Below the pieces are notes generated by a model that ran no database searches, had not been told where the DNA came from, and worked only from the letters and a program-made list of their open reading frames with translations. 26,298 nucleotides of DNA from a virus, in the IMG/VR virus record IMGVR_UViG_3300045988_009838, positions 1 to 26,298 of that record; one strand, given 5' to 3'. The first letter of the stretch is position 1. Every line of letters starts with the position of its first letter. Made by a program: the position numbers and the translations under genes. Of this stretch, positions 16,574-23,799 are shown piece by piece.

Positions 16574-16756
16574 TTAGTGTGCACTAAAAATCTGCGTTGA
16601 TTTCTTAGCGAAATACATATATTCATTAATTTTGCTGATGAATGAGTATAAATCTAAATCATCCATCATTTTCTGTTTATGCTCTTGTGAGAATACAAGG
16701 CCGTGAATACGCTCGTAGTCTTCAAAGAGCTTTAGTTTTACTTCCGTTTCTGTCAA
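16574..16756 (-). CDS. Hypothetical small early protein
   Basis: 60-aa ORF fitting exactly between the loader gene and recT. Confidence 0.45.
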   Translation of the reverse strand: MTETEVKLKLFEDYERIHGLVFSQEHKQKMMDDLDLYSFISKINEYMYFAKKSTQIFSAH

Positions 16757-17535
16757 AGCATCATCCTCTTGTCTTGTTGTGTCTTGAATTGATAAACATG
16801 TTCATTCGTCGTTCCAAGCCCTGTCTTTTTGAATACCCTCGAATAGACACGTTTACCATAAGTGCCCATGATGTCCCGTGGGCTTAAGTTAGTTGTGATG
16901 ATAGTCTTAGTACGCTTGTTCAAAATACTGTACAAGATACCGTTGGACCATTCTGTCACTTTTTCAGTCCCCAAATCATCAAGCACTAGCCATTCAGCCT
17001 CCGATATGCGTCTGATATATTCAGCTTCAAGGCTGAAATCTTCTTTGATTTTAGCTAATAGGTCAACCACGTTGATGAATAGCCCCATCTTTTTCGTGTG
17101 ATCAGACAAGGCTTTGAGTGCTGAGTAAGCTAGATGGCTCTTACCCACTCCAGTGTCACCAATCAAAACAATGTTGTAGTCTTGACCGTCAAGATAGCCT
17201 TTGAGTTGACTTCTAACATTCTTCAAGTCTTCTTTCTGCTCTCTGGTTACTGCTTTGTAATTGTCAAAGCTAGCGTTCTTCAAATCATCATCAAGCAGAC
17301 TGAAATCTTTGAGAAAGTACAAGCGTTTCTGCTCTTGCTCACGCTCGTACTGTTTTTGAGCTTTAACAGCATTCAAAATTTCTTGTTCTTCACGATGACA
17401 AGACTCGCAAACCGTGTAAGGGATTGAGTTAGGAAGTTGGATTGTTACGTAATGCCGATTGTGCTTTTCGCAGTATTTATCACTTTGTGTGATATACCGC
17501 TTGCGCATTTGTTTAGCTGTATGCTCTAGTGTCAT
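16753..17535 (-). CDS. DnaC/IstB-like AAA+ helicase loader
   Basis: Walker A GDTGVGKSH, Walker B LVLDDLG, N-terminal Cys4 motif (CEKH...CESCH). Confidence 0.85.
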   Translation of the reverse strand: MTLEHTAKQMRKRYITQSDKYCEKHNRHYVTIQLPNSIPYTVCESCHREEQEILNAVKAQKQYEREQEQKRLYFLKDFSLLDDDLKNASFDNYKAVTREQKEDLKNVRSQLKGYLDGQDYNIVLIGDTGVGKSHLAYSALKALSDHTKKMGLFINVVDLLAKIKEDFSLEAEYIRRISEAEWLVLDDLGTEKVTEWSNGILYSILNKRTKTIITTNLSPRDIMGTYGKRVYSRVFKKTGLGTTNEHVYQFKTQQDKRMML

Positions 17536-17549
17536 AGTTTTTCACTTCC

Positions 17550-18395
17550 TCAATACTTGCTACAAGCTGGACCAAATTTTGGTTTATCGCTGTTTGGTTT
17601 TTTGGACTCAAACTTGTTTTGTTCCTCTTGTTGCTGGACTACTGTTTTTATTCCATTCTGTGCCCAAGATTTCAAGATAGAGTTAACATAGCCAAAAGAG
17701 CGTTTAGAATTATCGGCTGCTTTATCAATGGCTATTTTGATTAAATCTGGTTCCAATCCATCAATAACTTGGTAACCCTCTAGTTGTTGAAGTTGGAATC
17801 CATCTAATAGCCCAATTCTTTCTTGGTAGTGTTCAAAGATATTGAAGTTAGATTTATCAGCAGTAGCAGAAGATAGTTTTCTATTCTCTGCTTCTACTTC
17901 TGTCTTTATATCTAGGTTTAACTCTTGTTTTAACTCTATATCTTCTTCTATCTCTTTCTCTATCTCTGTTGGACACTGGTTGGACATCGGTTGGACATTG
18001 TCCAATTTGGTTGGAATTTGTCCAATTTTGCGATCTTTACGCTTGTATTGTGCCCAATTTGTTTCTTGTTCAAGCAAGGCTTCAGCTTGTGGAAACTTAG
18101 CATTTCCGTCTGTGTCGATTTGGATAAGCCCGCATTTAGTAAAGTAGGCTATCGTCATGCTGACATCGTCCTCGCTAACATCTAGCTTGAGTGCTAACTC
18201 TTGGATTAAGTTATCGAAATAACCTTCATAATACAGAATGCAATCAGTTTCTAAACTCTCAAGCATTAGCCTAATATAGATCACGGTCATTGCGTAGCCA
18301 CCGCTAACACTTTTTAGCCGTTTGATGAATAGATTGTCAAAAAATTTTTTATCGAATTTAAGCCAAAAATAAACTTTAGTTTTTGTTTTAGCCAT
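17550..18395 (-). CDS. Phage replisome organizer with C-terminal DnaD-like domain
   Basis: 281 aa; N-terminus YFWLKFDKKFFDN... is typical of replisome organizers; C-terminus RSFGYVNSILKSWAQNGIKT is DnaD-like; internal DNA repeats (ori). Confidence 0.8.
   Translation of the reverse strand: MAKTKTKVYFWLKFDKKFFDNLFIKRLKSVSGGYAMTVIYIRLMLESLETDCILYYEGYFDNLIQELALKLDVSEDDVSMTIAYFTKCGLIQIDTDGNAKFPQAEALLEQETNWAQYKRKDRKIGQIPTKLDNVQPMSNQCPTEIEKEIEEDIELKQELNLDIKTEVEAENRKLSSATADKSNFNIFEHYQERIGLLDGFQLQQLEGYQVIDGLEPDLIKIAIDKAADNSKRSFGYVNSILKSWAQNGIKTVVQQQEEQNKFESKKPNSDKPKFGPACSKY
17968..18025. repeat. Origin-like repeat cluster inside the replisome organizer gene
   Basis: GTTGGACA at 17968, 17979 and 17990 (direct); palindrome TTGGACA-T-TGTCCAA at 17991-18005; TTGGAATTTGTCCAA at 18011-18025. 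Confidence 0.65.
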
Positions 18396-18449: not shown

Positions 18450-20192
18450 TTATTTACCGTTGTATTTCTTGAAACCAAGAGTTAGAGCAGTGATTCCTGC
18501 AGCGATGACTACCAATCCTAAAGTGCTAGCAATTCCTTCTTTCTCACCAGTGTTAGGGAGAACACCGCCGTAAACGGCTGTATTTGGTGTCTCTTTGCTT
18601 GCTGGTGCGAAGTTATAAGATACTGTGGCAGATTGTGCCACTTTTTCTTTAGGCTTGTTAGGTACTTCTTTCGGTGTCACTGGTTTTTCTGGTGTTGGTT
18701 CCACTGGAATATGCAACTCTGGCAAATCAAGGATAGGGGCATCATTCGGAACTACTCCCCCTTCGAATGGTGGCAACTCACGGACTTCTGGAATTCCGGG
18801 AATACCTCCTTGGAATTCAGGTTTGTAATGGATAGGCGCTTCATTTGGCACTGTCCCGCCATTCCATTCTGGTTTATCCAAAACTGGAGCGTCGTTTGGT
18901 ACAGTTCCAATCGGTTCAGTGTACTCAGGCAATTCTCGCACCTCTGGGATTCCGGGGATACCGCCTTTAAATTCCGGTTTTTCGTACTTAGGTGCATCGT
19001 GTGGCACCTCAAAAGTTGGCTCTGGTTTGTTCTCGCCAGAAGCATCCCCACGCCCGCCGACAAGTTGAATCTTCTGATATGAAACAGCACCATCATTTTC
19101 AGCTTTCAATTCAATCTTGTTAGTCGGGTTTGTACTGTCTTTAACAGCATTTACAAGCTTAGTCTTGTAGTACAAGTAAATCATGTGGTCTAGTCTATCC
19201 ATTTTGATTTCAAATCCATGCTCAGATTTTGAGATAGACTTAACTAAGTCCATAGCTGAACCTTTGTCAATCCAAGGGTCTAAACTTTCAATATTTTTCA
19301 CTTCAAAGTAGTTATCAACCAACTTTTGGTTTTCTGACATTTCGTCAATGATTGTTACATAGTTTAGTACACGTTTTGCATAGTTAACTCGTGCTGTCCA
19401 ATTGATCACTGTAGGGTCTTCTTTGTCTTGAAATCCCCATTTAGCGATAAGTTCATCTTTGCCAATTACTTGCTCCGAACCTACATTGACTGTTACCACA
19501 GTGCCGTTAAAGTTGACATTTACTGGCTTGCCAGATACAACTTTATCTGTCCAACTTGCATCTAGTTTTAAGTTCATGATCTTATTCAAAGGGTGTGATT
19601 TGAAATAGTCATTGAATACAGTTGTCACCTTGTTAGTGGTAGCATCCGCTGTAGCTTTACCAACTACAGCTTTATCAGGATTGTGGACGTCAAACTCATA
19701 GGAAGTTTGAAATTTTACTTCTTCAGGTAAGTCAAAAGTAACCTTATCCCCCTCATTTACCGGCACGTCGTCCGGAATTTTAATGTTTTTATACTCAACC
19801 TCGAACGGGCTATACTTTCCATTCGGGAAAGTAACCTCAACGTTTGGGTTTTCAACGTTGAATGTGTCTCCCGTTTTAGTCACTGTAGTAGGTGCCGCTG
19901 GTGTTTCTGCAATCGGTTGAGCTTCGACTGGTGCTGGTGGAGTAAATACTGGTGTTTCCACTGGTGCCACTGTTTCAGACGGTGTCACTGTAATATTCCC
20001 GGCATTGTCAGCGGTATAGACATTAGACACCGCTGGTTGTGTGTCTGCCACTGGTTGAGTGGTTTCGTCTGCTGACACTGCCCCAGCTCCAATCAATAGA
20101 GCTGTAGCTAGTGCCAATGTGCCACAAAGTCCGTAGGCTTTAGTTTTAACGTAGCTAGGTTTTGAAGTTGTTTGAGTGTTGAAAGATTTCAT
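18450..20192 (-). CDS. LPXTG-anchored surface adhesin (MSCRAMM/collagen-binding-like A region, Pro-rich repeats)
   Basis: The track ORF is trimmed to the ATG at 20192 (RBS AAGGAG). Signal peptide MKSFNTQTTSKPSYVKTKAYGLCGTLALATALLIGAGAVSA. TVFNDYF and INWTARVNY motifs resemble adhesin N2/N3 folds. LPNTG at 18546-18560 is followed by a TM segment and a KKYNGK tail. Confidence 0.85.
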   Translation of the reverse strand: MKSFNTQTTSKPSYVKTKAYGLCGTLALATALLIGAGAVSADETTQPVADTQPAVSNVYTADNAGNITVTPSETVAPVETPVFTPPAPVEAQPIAETPAAPTTVTKTGDTFNVENPNVEVTFPNGKYSPFEVEYKNIKIPDDVPVNEGDKVTFDLPEEVKFQTSYEFDVHNPDKAVVGKATADATTNKVTTVFNDYFKSHPLNKIMNLKLDASWTDKVVSGKPVNVNFNGTVVTVNVGSEQVIGKDELIAKWGFQDKEDPTVINWTARVNYAKRVLNYVTIIDEMSENQKLVDNYFEVKNIESLDPWIDKGSAMDLVKSISKSEHGFEIKMDRLDHMIYLYYKTKLVNAVKDSTNPTNKIELKAENDGAVSYQKIQLVGGRGDASGENKPEPTFEVPHDAPKYEKPEFKGGIPGIPEVRELPEYTEPIGTVPNDAPVLDKPEWNGGTVPNEAPIHYKPEFQGGIPGIPEVRELPPFEGGVVPNDAPILDLPELHIPVEPTPEKPVTPKEVPNKPKEKVAQSATVSYNFAPASKETPNTAVYGGVLPNTGEKEGIASTLGLVVIAAGITALTLGFKKYNGK

Positions 20193-20200
20193 GGTATAAT
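20172..20200 (+). promoter_or_regulatory. Near-consensus plus-strand promoter TTGAGT-17-TGgTATAAT inside/abutting the LPXTG start codon
   Basis: -35 at 20172-20177; TG at 20192-20193 (shared with the CATG of the minus-strand start); -10 at 20195-20200. Confidence 0.55.
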
Positions 20201-20223
20201 CTCCTTGTAAATGTTTTTTTCTT

Positions 20224-20250
20224 GCATGGGCCCTAACCCATGCTTTTTTT
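20224..20250 (+). terminator. Plus-strand intrinsic terminator about 20 nt downstream of that promoter
   Basis: GCATGGG-ccctaa-CCCATGC followed by TTTTTTT. In the minus orientation the hairpin is followed by an A-rich tract. Confidence 0.6.
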
Positions 20251-20273
20251 AGTGCTTCAATCCGCACCCATCG

Positions 20274-20307
20274 CCCACCGTTTCATGTTTTTTCAATGTT
20301 TTATTAG
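20274..20307. repeat. Right copy of the direct repeat bracketing the LPXTG cassette
   Basis: CCCACC-gtttcatgtttt-TTCAATGTTT-t-ATTAG. Confidence 0.5.
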
Positions 20308-20415
20308 ACTTATGAATGGGAAAATTAGGAAAAAAGTAATTTAGTAAAGATTTTTTTGGGGAAAAGGCATAAGTTACACTCCACGGTGAGCCGTGGCTAC
20401 GGATTGAAGATGTTG

Positions 20416-20535
20416 CTATTTGATATATTTCTGTTTGAGCCGTTCGCTCTTTTCTTCTGGTGTTTCAATCACATCGAAGAAGTATTCTGGCTCTTTAGTT
20501 TTCTTCTTGAAAAATAGTTTTCTTAGTAGCTTCAT
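20416..20535 (-). CDS. Possible 39-aa early ORF (MKLLRKLFFKKKTKEPEYFFDVIETPEEKSERLKQKYIK)
   Basis: Own translation; the start lies 3 nt after the stop of the upstream micro-ORF. Confidence 0.35.
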   Translation of the reverse strand: MKLLRKLFFKKKTKEPEYFFDVIETPEEKSERLKQKYIK

Positions 20536-20538
20536 GAG

Positions 20539-20682
20539 TTACCCCACTAATTGATCTAATGGCAATCCGTGGTCTGCATTGAAATCTCGTACCTTTTCGT
20601 CAATCATGCGATATGGTCTTACCTCGAAGACTTCTACTTCATTTTGCTTTTTGCTCCAAATCCAATTGATAAGTTTTTTCAT
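20539..20682 (-). CDS. Possible 47-aa early ORF (MKKLINWIWSKKQNEVEVFEVRPYRMIDEKVRDFNADHGLPLDQLVG)
   Basis: Own translation; RBS AGAGGT 8 nt upstream of the ATG at 20682. Confidence 0.45.
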   Translation of the reverse strand: MKKLINWIWSKKQNEVEVFEVRPYRMIDEKVRDFNADHGLPLDQLVG

Positions 20683-20750
20683 GTTTTTTTACCTCTCTTA
20701 TTCTTCTAACTATGATTACTGTATAGTTATCTATTAGTTATTATTACCAG

Positions 20751-20796
20751 TTAGTGCCGTTAGGCTCTAGATTGTTGTCGGTTAGTGCCGTAGGCC
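20751..20796 (+). repeat. Two direct copies of TTAGTGCCGT(T)AGGC
   Basis: Copies at 20751-20765 and 20782-20796; related copies at 20837, 21528 (inverted) and 21649. Confidence 0.6.
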
Positions 20797-20799
20797 ATA

Positions 20800-20846
20800 T
20801 TGTTATATATTAGTACTTGTTATATATTAGTACTTGTTAGTGTCCG
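20800..20846 (+). repeat. Tandem 17-bp repeat TTGTTATATATTAGTAC x2 plus a partial third copy
   Basis: 20800-20816 and 20817-20833 are identical; TTGTTAGTGTCCG follows. Confidence 0.8.
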
Positions 20847-20960
20847 ATTATTCATCGTATGAATTTTCATCGGTTGAATTATTCATCGTATGAATTTTCA
20901 ACTTATGAATTATCATCGTATGAATTAATGGAAATTCCATTTATCGAACTATGAATTTTT
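20847..20960 (+). repeat. Iteron-like array: three copies of TCATCGTATGAATT within a 15-16-bp phased series of (T)ATGAATT
   Basis: 14-mers at 20852, 20883 and 20913; GAATT at 20861, 20876, 20892, 20907, 20922 and 20953. Confidence 0.8.
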
Positions 20961-21275
20961 AAGGCTACCTGTGGATAACTCTGTGGATAACTTTTTATCA
21001 AGGTATTCTATAAACTTGTCTGTCATGGGTATGTCTGATGCACATACAACTATTTCAAAACCTTTTTTATAGCCCTTGCTTTTTCGGAAAACCACGACAT
21101 ACCGTTTGTGTTTTAATTCTTCAAACGCTGAACGGTGTGAGCTTTTCCCATTGGTTGACCTCTTTTCGAGTTCTGACAGATAAACCCGCCAATCGCTTTT
21201 ATTTATCAAGATTTCAGCAAGTAAACCCTTAGCTTGTAAACTCAAGCTGGCGTCTTGCAAAAACTCGTTGTTCAT
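20949..21275 (-). CDS. Small winged-helix DNA-binding protein (RepA_N / DnaD-N-like pattern)
   Basis: 108 aa. LSLQAKGLLAEIL...WRVYLSELEKRS..GKSSHRSAFEELKHKRYV follows the wHTH pattern of Firmicute initiator N-terminal domains. The repeat array starts at its stop codon. Confidence 0.55.
   Translation of the reverse strand: MNNEFLQDASLSLQAKGLLAEILINKSDWRVYLSELEKRSTNGKSSHRSAFEELKHKRYVVVFRKSKGYKKGFEIVVCASDIPMTDKFIEYLDKKLSTELSTGSLKNS
20970..20990 (-). promoter_or_regulatory. Two perfect tandem DnaA boxes (TTATCCACA) 12 bp apart
   Basis: The plus strand has TGTGGATAA at 20970-20978 and 20982-20990, inside the last codons of 20949..21275. Confidence 0.7.
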
Positions 21276-21322
21276 GCATGTATAGTTTTTTTCATCGTTA
21301 GTGAAAGATATACTTCATTCGG

Positions 21323-21463
21323 TTATGCTCCTTTCTGGTAGATGCTTGCCACGATATCGTAGTAGCTATGCCCTGCTGGTATCGTGTACTTAGTTAGATC
21401 ATCAACTCTGGAACCATCTGCCATAATGTTGATTATGACTGGTTCCCATTTCTTTCGTTTCAT
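21323..21463 (-). CDS. Possible 46-aa early ORF (MKRKKWEPVIINIMADGSRVDDLTKYTIPAGHSYYDIVASIYQKGA)
   Basis: Own translation; below the track cut-off; AAGG lies 11 nt upstream of the ATG. Confidence 0.45.
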   Translation of the reverse strand: MKRKKWEPVIINIMADGSRVDDLTKYTIPAGHSYYDIVASIYQKGA

Positions 21464-21527: not shown

Positions 21528-21663
21528 GCCTTAACGACACTAGAGAACTAGCGAGGACTTCGAATATTTATTTTTAGGAGTTCTTATAAATCAAATCGTC
21601 GCTAATGGTATTGCTTACGCTACAACTGAATTGTTGCCCCGCTAGCTCACTAGTGCCGTTAAG
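21528..21663 (-). ncRNA. Long imperfect helix (28 positions) closing an ~80-nt apical region in the early transcript
   Basis: 21528-21555 pairs with 21636-21663: 24 Watson-Crick pairs, 1 mismatch and 3 positions that are G-U in the minus-sense RNA but A-C in the plus-sense RNA. Confidence 0.5.
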
Positions 21664-21672
21664 GTGACATCC

Positions 21673-22425
21673 TCAATCGTCTTGTTCGATGATTGGCAGG
21701 ATGCCGTTAACTTTTAGCAATTCATACAAGAACAAGCGCCCTTTTTGTGTCCAAGTCGTTGTCATATTGACTTGAGCTTGACCGTTCTTATCCTTGTAAT
21801 CAAATGTCGAACTATCGACATAGCCCTTACCCATGTGTTTCTTATACAAAATCCATTGACTGTTGACCTTGTGTTGAACACCTAGATCATGCAAGGTTGC
21901 ATTGAATTTCTTGGCACTCATGCCGTAATCTGCCGCAATCTGGGTAACACGCACCGCCCCTTTACTTTCTAGAATGATGTCGAAGTAGCGTGCTTGCTCT
22001 TGCGCCAAGGCCAACTCAGCCTCTAGTTTCACCACTTTAGCCCGTTCGTCTTTAAGAGCTTGAAAGGCTGCAATGGCAAGGTCAGGATCATTAAGTAGTT
22101 GTTCTGTAGCATACATGCCATGTTTGCGTATGGTTGGCAAAACCTCTGATGTGACCCAACGTTTAAACTCCTTGGCTTGTGGTAGTTTGCTTGACAAAAT
22201 TAGGGAGTATAAACCAGACTCATTGATGATAATCATCTCTCTGTCTTGACCTGAGGTACCGAAACGGTACTTCAGCTTATCTTCTTCATCTACGTGTCTA
22301 TTGACATCTCGACTACCATTTTGGTACCCCAAAATCCCAGCCACATCCTTACCTACAAAGTAAGGCTCATTGTTAATAGTTACTGTTCGGACATCTTGTC
22401 CGTGGAAGTTGAAAATTTCATTCAT
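21673..22425 (-). CDS. Antirepressor (Bro-N domain plus KilAC/ANT-like C-terminal domain)
   Basis: The track ORF is trimmed to the ATG at 22425 (RBS AAAGAAAGGAAAC). FNFHGQDVRTVTINNEPYFVGKDVAGILGY is a typical Bro-N motif. Confidence 0.8.
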   Translation of the reverse strand: MNEIFNFHGQDVRTVTINNEPYFVGKDVAGILGYQNGSRDVNRHVDEEDKLKYRFGTSGQDREMIIINESGLYSLILSSKLPQAKEFKRWVTSEVLPTIRKHGMYATEQLLNDPDLAIAAFQALKDERAKVVKLEAELALAQEQARYFDIILESKGAVRVTQIAADYGMSAKKFNATLHDLGVQHKVNSQWILYKKHMGKGYVDSSTFDYKDKNGQAQVNMTTTWTQKGRLFLYELLKVNGILPIIEQDD

Positions 22426-22449
22426 AGTGTTTCCTTTCTTTGATATAAT
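22421..22449 (+). promoter_or_regulatory. Plus-strand promoter TTCATA-17-TGaTATAAT for the membrane-protein gene; its -35 contains the antirepressor start codon
   Basis: -35 at 22421-22426 (CAT 22423-22425 is the antirepressor ATG); TG at 22441-22442; -10 at 22444-22449. Confidence 0.55.
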
Positions 22450-22473
22450 AGTTAATAAAAACGAGGTTTTGAC

Positions 22474-22896
22474 ATGAAGAATAAATCTGAAATATCTGCT
22501 TTTCTGATGTTCGTTGGGTTGCTGTACATTGAATTCCACTGTATAACACCAGATAGCCATTCAGCCTTGACTAGGCTGGCCGACATCAATTGGACGTATC
22601 TATGCCTAGTGATTGGTATCGCTTTATTCATTTCGATGTTAGCGTTAAGCTATATCCATGACATCCTACTCTTTTTTAAACTTGAAAAAGACGGTGATAT
22701 AACTTATAGCTTTGTCGTCACTTTGCCTATCTTTGGAATCCTCGTTTTGAGAAACTGCTTGATTGTCCTGTCTGATACTCAATTTGGAAATTTAATGTCC
22801 TTTGTTAGCGTCCCTATCTTCGGTGCTTTCTGGTCGCTTTCCAAACGAACGCTCAAAGCGAACAGGCAGCAAGATGAGAACTCCGACAAGCATTGA
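22474..22896 (+). CDS. Four-TM membrane protein, counter-oriented moron (possible superinfection exclusion/immunity function)
   Basis: 140-aa ORF; GAGG 8 nt before the ATG; four hydrophobic segments; own promoter and terminator. The minus strand has no ORF between 22426 and 22791. Confidence 0.6.
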   Translation: MKNKSEISAFLMFVGLLYIEFHCITPDSHSALTRLADINWTYLCLVIGIALFISMLALSYIHDILLFFKLEKDGDITYSFVVTLPIFGILVLRNCLIVLSDTQFGNLMSFVSVPIFGAFWSLSKRTLKANRQQDENSDKH

Positions 22897-23006: not shown

Positions 23007-23243
23007 TTAATTATTTAGTTCAAGTTCTTGAACTTCATAGTTAAAAAAATATTCAACAATCTCTTTTTTTGAGATTTCTAATAATTTAGCCGCTTTCACA
23101 ATTTCGTCTTGTTGCCACTTTGCTTTCCCGTTGATTTTAAACGAAATCGTTGTTGGAGTTATGCCGATGGCTTCTGCGAAATTTTCTTGCGTTCCGTATT
23201 TTTCTTTGATACGACCTTTTAATTTAGCATAGTCAAATCTCAT
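23007..23243 (-). CDS. Cro-like XRE-family HTH regulator
   Basis: 78 aa; HTH TQENFAEAIGITPTTISFKINGK; divergent from the repressor gene across an operator-rich region. Confidence 0.85.
   Translation of the reverse strand: MRFDYAKLKGRIKEKYGTQENFAEAIGITPTTISFKINGKAKWQQDEIVKAAKLLEISKKEIVEYFFNYEVQELELNN
23018..23033. promoter_or_regulatory. Operator copy O3 GTTCAAGTTCTTGAAC inside the 3' end of cro
   Basis: Perfect GTTCAA-N4-TTGAAC palindrome, the same architecture as the two intergenic copies. Confidence 0.6.
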
Positions 23244-23316: not shown

Positions 23317-23324
23317 CAGTTTTT

Positions 23325-23340
23325 GTTCAATTTTTTGAAC
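23325..23340. promoter_or_regulatory. Operator copy O2 GTTCAATTTTTTGAAC between the two divergent -35 boxes
   Basis: Perfect GTTCAA-N4-TTGAAC palindrome; an extra TTGAAC half-site forms the repressor promoter -35 at 23357-23362. Confidence 0.7.
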
Positions 23341-23356
23341 TTTTTTCCGATTTTTC

Positions 23357-23385
23357 TTGAACTTTTTTATTTTCTACTATATAAT
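23357..23385 (+). promoter_or_regulatory. Repressor (lysogeny) promoter TTGAAC-17-TATAAT
   Basis: -35 at 23357-23362 and -10 at 23380-23385, about 28 nt before the repressor ATG. Confidence 0.7.
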
Positions 23386-23412
23386 AAAGCCATAAAGGAA
23401 AAGGAAAAAAAT

Positions 23413-23799
23413 ATGAAAAATACTACTGCTTCACGTTTGCGACAAGTTATGAGCGAACGAAATTTAAAACAAGTTGACGTAATTTCCCTTTCGAAAGTAC
23501 ATCAAAAAGAACTTGGCGTTAAACTTGGAAAGAGTGCTTTGTCTCAATATATCAATGGGAAATCAACACCAGACCAAGAAAAGTTGGTGCTGCTTGCTAG
23601 AACGTTGGGGGTATCTGAAGCATGGCTCATGGGGTACGATGTCCCTATGACGAAAGAACAACCGCAACCAACCAACGCCCACGACATTGACGAAATCATA
23701 GCTAATGCAATGATGTTCGACGGGAAACCGTTGACGGATGATGATAAACGTGCCATCCGTGGCATCATTGCGGGATATATGAGCAGCAAGGAAAAGTGA
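23413..23799 (+). CDS. cI-like XRE-family repressor (ImmR-type, partner of ImmA)
   Basis: The track ORF is trimmed to the ATG at 23413 (RBS AAAGGAAAAGGA). HTH LKQVDVISLSKVHQKELGVKLGKSALSQYINGK. Followed by the ImmA-like gene. Confidence 0.85.
   Translation: MKNTTASRLRQVMSERNLKQVDVISLSKVHQKELGVKLGKSALSQYINGKSTPDQEKLVLLARTLGVSEAWLMGYDVPMTKEQPQPTNAHDIDEIIANAMMFDGKPLTDDDKRAIRGIIAGYMSSKEK

Follow-up and report, generated by a model that had tools for sequence, protein, structure and literature searches.

Among phages, replisome organizers with in-gene origins are represented by SPP1 G38P/oriL and by those of the lactococcal phages TP901-1, r1t, and Tuc2009. The non-coding origins of the dairy streptococcal and lactococcal phages Sfi21, phi31, and phi50, which adjoin primase/helicase-type modules, confer "Per" resistance when cloned. 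Origins of the iteron-plasmid and P1 oriR type (pSC101, F, RK2, R6K, and P1) carry DnaA boxes, and the iteron-plasmid repeats are direct repeats longer than 15-16 bp. In bacteria, the basal unwinding system of oriC comprises tandem DnaA boxes, a GC cluster, DnaA-trios/DnaD recognition element, and an AT-rich region, and Bacillus subtilis DnaD recognizes pairs of 5'-TnnT-3' on the A/T/C strand (PMC10201434). Here we describe a putative replication origin cassette at positions 20683-21275 of a 26.3-kb viral contig from IMG/VR (IMGVR_UViG_3300045988_009838; 26,298 bp, ~70% complete; this whole stretch is called the window below). The window comes from a temperate Streptococcus salivarius phage: a prophage of S. 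salivarius strain 85-06 carries the central gene of the cassette, which encodes a winged helix-turn-helix (wHTH) protein, at 96% identity.

No recognizable helicase, loader, or primase is present in many streptococcal prophages, among them prophages of S. pyogenes, S. agalactiae, S. pneumoniae, and S. suis, and how these prophages start replication goes unexplained in their annotation. The module described here would explain it concretely, by means of a specificity protein of 100 aa, the iterons belonging to that protein, and a DnaA box of the host.

A candidate origin cassette in the early operon

The early genes of the window lie on the minus strand, and the elements of the cassette are listed on that strand, in the direction of early transcription.

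20949-21275, minus strand: stand-alone gene for a winged-helix, initiator-type protein of 108 aa, HTH_36 type (phrog profile matches; AlphaFold2 [AF2] model)
20982-20990, minus strand: DnaA box 1, TTATCCACA, forming codons Leu-Ser-Thr
20970-20978, minus strand: DnaA box 2, TTATCCACA, also forming Leu-Ser-Thr, at a position where a box recurs across the genus
20683-20948, minus strand: non-coding gap of 266 bp, directly 3' of the 108-aa open reading frame (ORF)
20851-20956, minus strand: iteron array of six 14-15-nt units, ATTCATACGATGAA(W), plus the palindrome ATGGAATTTCCAT, with 15-16-bp phasing
20943-20956, 20912-20925, 20897-20910, 20882-20895, 20866-20879, and 20851-20864, minus strand: the six iteron units, spaced by 31, 15, 15, 16, and 15 bp
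20836-20850, minus strand: conserved junction TAATCGGACACTAAC, family consensus AAAATCG(G/C)ACACTAAY
20805-20838, minus strand: two tandem copies of the 17-bp AACAAGTACTAATATAT, a G-poor, AT-rich repeat and candidate unwinding/primosome-loading element
20750-20804, minus strand: two units ending (C)CTA(A)CGGCACTAAC, 31 bp apart, with copies at 20781-20795 and 20750-20764
20683-20749, minus strand: A/T-rich tail with AACTAAT, holding the ribosome-binding site (RBS) GAGAGG (20692-20697) of the next gene

This arrangement suggests that 20683-21275 is probably a working origin cassette that recruits host DnaA. The 108-aa protein, probably as dimers, would bind the six or seven dyad iterons, which follow one another every 15-16 bp (1.5 helical turns) from its own stop codon, and host DnaA would bind the two consensus boxes in the last codons of the gene, at the upstream edge of the array. 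Together, the two proteins may open the G-poor, TnnT-rich ACTAAY segment or load the host primosome (DnaD, DnaB, and DnaI/DnaC) there. That the wHTH protein and DnaA bind here, where the DNA unwinds, and that the origin is active are inferences.

A preliminary description of this DNA had reported an ATGAATT/GAATT array, 17-bp tandem repeats, two copies of the DnaA-box consensus 12 bp apart at 20970-20990, and AT-rich flanks. All of these elements were recovered at those coordinates, and GC content drops to 0.275 at 20800-20999. The boxes, whose starts are 12 bp apart, share one orientation and read TTATCCACA-GAG-TTATCCACA within the last codons, K-LST-E-LST-G; they are the sole perfect DnaA boxes in the window. 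It is a 12-bp duplication (GAGTTATCCACA) that gives the window lineage two boxes, and the relative L023 has one. The first iteron unit overlaps the stop codon of the 108-aa ORF, each iteron 15-mer is itself a dyad (TTCAT-N3-ATGAA), and the 31-bp interval in the array is occupied by the related palindrome ATGGAATTTCCAT (ATGGAA-T-TTCCAT, 20927-20941). The iteron pattern has 9 matches in the window, seven of them in the array, compared with 3.5 +/- 1.9 in shuffled sequence, and none of 100 shuffles reached 9. Similarly, the pattern CCTAACGGCACTAAC has 6 matches compared with 0.38 expected, a count that no shuffle reached. The (C)CTA(A)CGGCACTAAC units are kept in many, but not all, relatives.

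RNA-level readings of the region were also considered and rejected. No non-coding RNA was found in 20300-21400 by Rfam matching (best E value 0.12, far below gathering), and the conserved segment folds no better than shuffled sequence (z -1.6).

The module is widespread in streptococcal prophages

A near-identity search of phage records gave no close DNA relative of the region (at most 8% coverage); homologous modules were gathered by protein-guided searches, and 101 were collected. The module occurs in 104 Streptococcus phage records (phages of S. pyogenes, S. agalactiae, S. pneumoniae, S. suis, S. equi, and S. anginosus), in 27 IMG/VR contigs, and in 55 of 401 Streptococcus species genomes; among the 80 records listed, the match is unannotated (no feature) in 21. 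The relatives that bear it are integrated prophages, and the module lies within their lytic early operon. The wHTH gene is small throughout (98 to 141 aa) and is followed on its 3' side by a 125-300-bp gap in 101/101 modules. The best periodicity of this gap is 15-18 bp, mostly 15-16, beginning at or near the stop codon. Relatives have 3 to 7 iteron units at the same period as the window and 2 to 4 copies of the 17-bp-type repeat. Syntenic relatives from which the repeats and boxes are absent were looked for, and the architecture is kept in every relative examined. A literature search found no description of the module, although an earlier one may exist; the gene is already labeled "replication initiation protein" in many phage records, including those of the Javan-phage homologues.

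Two prophages carry the module in tandem. In genome G168 (L073, 2501-3740) the two modules are 290 bp apart and have distinct iterons, and in genome G071 (L092, 2498-4250) they are 812 bp apart and one lacks a DnaA box. Each of these modules has a wHTH gene, iterons distinct from those of its neighbor, and ACTAAY repeats, suggesting that the pairs are natural dual-specificity origins and that dual modules have been tolerated repeatedly.

The DnaA box is under DNA-level selection and matches that of the host

Codon usage at the box was analyzed over the last 22 codons of the genes for 83 distinct proteins. Leu-Ser-Thr is spelled TTATCCACA in 71/72 instances, compared with ~2% predicted from the codon use of the same genes, and nearly all box-type members carry TTATCCACA in the same orientation within the last 5 to 19 codons. 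Box-like DNA persists even where the amino acids have changed (TTATACACA encoding LYT and TTATCCAAA encoding LSK), and the box of L061 is found immediately after the stop codon. The DnaA box is thus under selection at the DNA level. A second perfect box is present at the distal end of the gap in 11 loci (nine without duplicate regions), and in several relatives it overlaps the RBS region of the next gene.

The host's own DnaA box is TTATCCACA: a host genome contains 75 copies in 2.3 Mb, compared with 19 of a reversed control, and the copies cluster around S. salivarius dnaA and dnaN. The sole tandem pair of perfect boxes in the prophage-carrying host genome is that of the prophage. We rejected the idea that the region is a copy of host oriC, the conserved 168 bp having no other match in that genome.

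Iterons track the wHTH protein and the AT-rich segment is constant

The profile phrog_1456, which has 365 positions, matches residues 1-105 of the 108-aa protein at 1.3e-24. The protein also matches the N termini of the replication initiation families phrog_4707 and phrog_428, as well as phrog_186 (DnaD-like helicase loader), and Pfam HTH_36 was found in 17/20 diverse members of its family. In an AF2 model (predicted local distance difference test score 77) it forms a wHTH followed by a C-terminal helix, and the ORF contains no C-terminal DnaD-like or Phg_2220_C domain. Family assignment by structure was tried and abandoned, since Foldseek fails to separate wHTH families, returning only generic winged helices, including DnaD-N (2v79), all with E > 0.04. 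A PDB profile search returned MarR and Lrs14. Homology to the N-terminal domain of the window's own replisome organizer was likewise rejected (hhalign probability 0.3%).

When the recognition-helix segment of the protein (residues 41-60) was compared with the iterons, the same segment was found with the same 15-mer, and different helices with different 15-mers:

helix segment TNGKSSHRSAFEELK: iteron AATTCATACGATGAW
helix segment TNGESSHRAAFSELK: iteron AATTCACGTCGTGAT, as in the L024 array
helix segment GISRRTVDEHFKLLE: iteron AAAATTGCCATGTGT
helix segment GVSRDMVDRHFKKIE: iteron TTTTACAAATCTGTA
helix segment KDGLVSHRSAFDELE: iteron TTTACAACTTTGTAT, as in the SA01 array

The 15-mer is common, with at most two mismatches, to 84% of pairs with a wHTH core at least 90% identical and to 0-2% of pairs below 60% core identity. 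By contrast, ACTAA is 100% conserved in 63 distinct segments, in which the family consensus of junction and repeats is AAAATCG(G/C)ACACTAAYAAATACTAAC and the gene strand consists of A, T, C, and G at 52, 25, 17, and 5%. Iterons that vary with the helix next to a constant ACTAAY segment are what would be expected of initiator-specific sites beside a segment serving a common (host) factor.

In L098-L101 the iterons (GAAAGTGAGATGTCA) fall within the last codons of the wHTH gene, where they encode SEMS repeats, so that the limit between gene and origin shifts from one family member to another.

The cassette resembles a split staphylococcal-type initiator

In streptococcal modules that lack the box, a stand-alone DnaB_2 (DnaD-like) ORF directly follows the gap (7e-22 to 3e-25). 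When modules were clustered at 70% identity, 12 clusters had the box only, 7 the DnaD-like ORF only, 1 both (L081), and 1 neither. On a tree of 79 proteins the state with a DnaD-like ORF requires at least three changes, and every instance except L081 is without the box. Box and DnaD-like ORF are therefore near-exclusive, with at least three independent switches between them. In the box-less L080, a CTACTACTACTA run lies ~130-165 nt past the wHTH stop codon, directly before the RBS of the DnaD-like ORF; this run resembles DnaA-trios or a DnaD recognition element.

A tblastn search with the wHTH protein reached staphylococcal rep genes at ~1e-6. The products of phiSLT orf256 and phage 88 ORF018 are each 256 aa long and contain both HTH_36 and Phg_2220_C, and in each phage the next gene encodes a DnaC-like loader. 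In the middle of each gene lie phage-specific 15-bp iterons, then ATCGCATACTA, then 3 to 5 ACTAATAAT repeats, the in-gene counterpart of the 17-bp repeat being ACTAATAATAAT, present 3 to 5 times. The streptococcal modules thus share with these initiators a homologous N-terminal wHTH (HTH_36) and the cis order of iterons, junction ATCG(C/G)AYACTAA, and ACTAAT AT-rich repeats. They differ in that the staphylococcal repeats are translated as the linker of a single 256-aa protein and the loader gene follows, whereas in the window the gene ends at the first iteron, the repeats do not encode protein, the C-terminal domain is missing, and DnaA boxes are present. Taken together with the DnaD-like ORFs found after the gap, this homologous in-gene layout leads us to interpret the streptococcal module as an initiator that has been split and whose origin lies in the gap. 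The cassette may accordingly be a split or truncated form of a staphylococcal-type initiator (HTH_36 plus a DnaD-like C-terminal domain), and in the box type, to which the window belongs, a host DnaA box appears to stand in place of the phage DnaD-like domain.

The wHTH module is the constant initiation module of the lineage

The other genes that bear on the argument are as follows.

23323-23799, plus strand: cI
23007-23243, minus strand: cro
21673-22560, minus strand: antirepressor
Between the antirepressor and the 108-aa wHTH ORF, minus strand: 46-aa ORF
20539-20682, minus strand: 47-aa ORF, phrog_1022 (no function known), the first gene past the gap
After the 47-aa ORF, minus strand: 39-aa ORF
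18450-20267, minus strand: LPXTG collagen-binding adhesin
17550-18395, minus strand: replisome organizer (Phage_rep_org_N plus DnaB_2; PF09681 plus PF07261), with in-gene iterons at 17968-18032
16753-17535, minus strand: DnaC/IstB-like helicase loader, which travels with the replisome organizer
Downstream of the DnaC-like loader in the early operon, minus strand: RecT, DUF1351, SSB, and RusA

In close relatives the order is wHTH gene, gap, 47-aa ORF, 39-aa ORF, LPXTG adhesin, small ORFs, Erf or RecT, DUF1351, and SSB. The cassette of replisome organizer and DnaC-like loader is present in only 2 of ~24 of them, the window and L015, suggesting that it is an occasional addition and that the wHTH module is the constant one of the lineage. 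Five complete box-type genomes (Javan83, Javan37, the isolated S. anginosus phage SA01, and two ~100%-complete proviruses) were searched for other initiation functions. None had a match to PF07261, PF01695, PF03796, PF09681, PF09524, or PF09250, the profiles of the DnaD-like domain, DnaC/IstB loader, DnaB helicase, organizer N-domain, Phg_2220_C, and Prim-Pol. The wHTH module is therefore the only recognizable initiation module in those five phages.

These comparisons also bear on the possibility that the cassette is an origin by ancestry but is redundant or silent here, replication starting from the in-gene iterons of the organizer and the wHTH module being a leftover or serving copy number or incompatibility. 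This would fit the complete organizer of the window, its own iterons, and its DnaC-like loader, and two full initiation systems in one 40-kb phage do look redundant. However, the wHTH gene, boxes, and iterons of the window are intact and 93-99% identical to those of organizer-less relatives, the gene itself being 99% identical with no decay. L015, the other organizer-bearing relative, also retains an intact module, and the tandem-module prophages G168 and G071 exist. We consider a silent module unlikely, though it is the strongest of the alternatives.

Weighing the origin reading

Several observations weigh against a working, DnaA-recruiting origin. With an organizer and loader complete in the same phage, the wHTH origin could be redundant or silent here. 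The window's 108-aa protein itself gave no Pfam hit, falling below the reporting level, and MarR, SarA, and ArsR regulators scored level with the DnaD N-domain in Foldseek (E > 0.04). The covariation of iterons and protein is confounded by linkage and shared descent. A clade of eight relatives (L094-L101) has neither the box nor an adjoining DnaD-like ORF, so that the either/or rule is not absolute; when a downstream organizer was sought in this clade, only a weak 45-aa fragment in L094 was found. Finally, ~100 bp, taken up by the iterons, separate the boxes from the AT-rich segment, and no in-phase DnaA-trio run adjoins the phage boxes, which are followed by GGTAGCC and, after it, by the iterons. 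The only trio-like GTACTAATA runs are ~130 bp from the boxes, and their frame shifts with the 17-bp repeat. Given the missing in-phase run and the ~100-bp distance, the oriC unwinding mechanism is not directly transferable and serves as an analogy only. A reading of the iterons themselves as DnaA-trios was rejected by inspection, as no frame of the 15-mers gives an NTA run.

Going beyond a working cassette, the family may represent a minimal "initiator-only" origin in which the DnaD-like domain has repeatedly been exchanged for a DnaA box in the initiator's last codons, the two being interchangeable means of primosome recruitment; the window phage and the tandem-module prophages would then be true dual-origin phages. 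This wider proposal is tentative, and we place it somewhat short of an even chance.

A transcriptional role is likewise unlikely, and slightly less probable than a silent origin. In that case the wHTH protein would be an early-operon regulator that coats the 15-mers and switches the 47-aa ORF, the LPXTG adhesin, and the replication genes, with the boxes coupling the switch to DnaA as a transcription factor. Consistent with this suggestion, the fold is nearest to MarR-, SarA-, and ArsR-type regulators, the units are dyad symmetric, as in operators, and the second DnaA box of several relatives lies over the RBS region of the next gene. However, no promoter-like or terminator-like site was seen on the transcribed strand of the gap, and the protein family is homologous to initiator N-domains. 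The same cis layout, moreover, is found in the interior of staphylococcal rep genes, a location that no intergenic operator can have; box-less relatives have a DnaD-like ORF directly adjoining the gap; and a purely regulatory module would leave the five complete relatives without any initiator.

A role as a second replicon of plasmid type, as a partition centromere, or as a DnaA titration site, with the prophage persisting or segregating as an episome, is highly improbable: DnaA boxes, iterons, AT-rich DNA, and a small DNA-binding gene superficially resemble P1 oriR and iteron plasmids, and the wHTH centromere binder AspA is among the weak fold matches, but the phage has a serine recombinase as its integration gene and a cI/cro switch, no ParA/ParB-like or other par gene was seen in the window, the protein is not of the RepA/Rep_3 type (no Rep-family Pfam hit, only generic wHTH/HTH_36), and the module sits within the lytic early operon of integrated prophages in all relatives.

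The preliminary description had presented the region as a second, origin-like region, with an iteron-plasmid or P1 oriR layout, in a phage that already has a classical origin within its organizer gene. The classical origin is there, with three copies of GTTGGACAYYG at 11 bp plus dyads at 17968-18032, and two initiator/origin modules are indeed present, but their priority is reversed, the wHTH module being the constant one. The set of elements matches the proposed layout, but a plasmid-type replicon does not agree with the single HTH_36 wHTH, the 15-16-bp dyads, and the serine recombinase. Two further suggestions, a partition-like centromere and a pure operator array of the wHTH protein, gained no positive support.

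Features around the cassette

Profile searches of the 47-aa ORF (20539-20682) found no DnaD-like or Phg_2220_C domain. A 41-bp segment within it (20543-20583) shows 95% identity to the S. thermophilus phages Sfi21, TP-J34, and TP-778L, and the counterpart of this segment is annotated as a stem-loop in TP-J34. Further downstream, in 18/24 window-related IMG/VR loci (L005-L028), the LPXTG adhesin gene comes after the origin module and two very short ORFs, which makes it a stable early-operon passenger located immediately downstream of the origin. On the other side of the cassette, between the antirepressor stop codon and the 46-aa ORF, inverted copies CCTTAACGGCACTAGTG ... CTAGTGTCGTTAAGG are found at 21528-21542 and 21647-21663 (minus strand), ~105 nt apart, with a core in common with the origin motif CCTAACGGCACTAAC. 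They could form a long stem in the early transcript or be a second site for the factor that recognizes CCTAACGGCACTAAC.

Implications

The cassette shows where phage origins may be sought in streptococcal genomes, and the sequence of the 15-mer would predict incompatibility or specificity groups. The alternation of box and DnaD-like ORF amounts to a natural experiment on how Firmicute initiators recruit DnaD, DnaB, and DnaI. Small origin fragments are possible "Per"-type resistance decoys against phages in dairy or laboratory streptococci. If the dual-origin proposal is true, origin choice and incompatibility would be open to study in one genome.

Comparison with known origins

In its outline, the cassette resembles bacterial oriC, in which tandem consensus boxes of one orientation likewise precede a TnnT-rich, G-poor A/T/C strand. 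In the dnaA-dnaN spacer of the S. salivarius host (L139, ~1859-2000) the origin reads TTATGCACAGTGTCCACAAGAC-CTACTACTACTACTA-AAATAATACTAAT, and its core consists of TTATGCACAGTGTCCACAAGAC, a proper run of five CTA units, and then AAATAATACTAATAAAATAAA. In the window, on the other hand, ~100 bp of phage-specific iterons intervene, there is no uninterrupted trio run, and a phage initiator is involved. The heptamer TACTAAT, in the AT-rich part of the host origin, also forms the core of the 17-bp repeats of the phage, a likeness that is short and AT-rich.

With iteron plasmids and P1 oriR the cassette shares DnaA boxes, initiator-specific repeats, an AT-rich region, and an adjoining initiator gene. 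It differs in having a single wHTH of ~108 aa rather than a two-winged-helix RepA, dyad repeats, and a place in a lytic operon free of partition genes. The origins of Sfi21, phi31, and phi50 are, like that proposed for the window, non-coding, repeat rich, and located in the replication region; apart from the 41-bp match in the 47-aa ORF, no sequence similarity to Sfi21 was found in the window region.

Replisome organizers likewise have a DNA-binding domain at the N terminus, iterons that lie inside the gene or beside it, and a DnaD-like function that recruits the helicase. In box-less streptococcal relatives the DnaD-like function comes from a separate DnaB_2 ORF. The window module departs further from the organizers: its DNA-binding domain is HTH_36, not PF09681, and has no profile similarity to theirs, its gene appears to be split, and a DnaA box would take the place of the DnaD-like domain.

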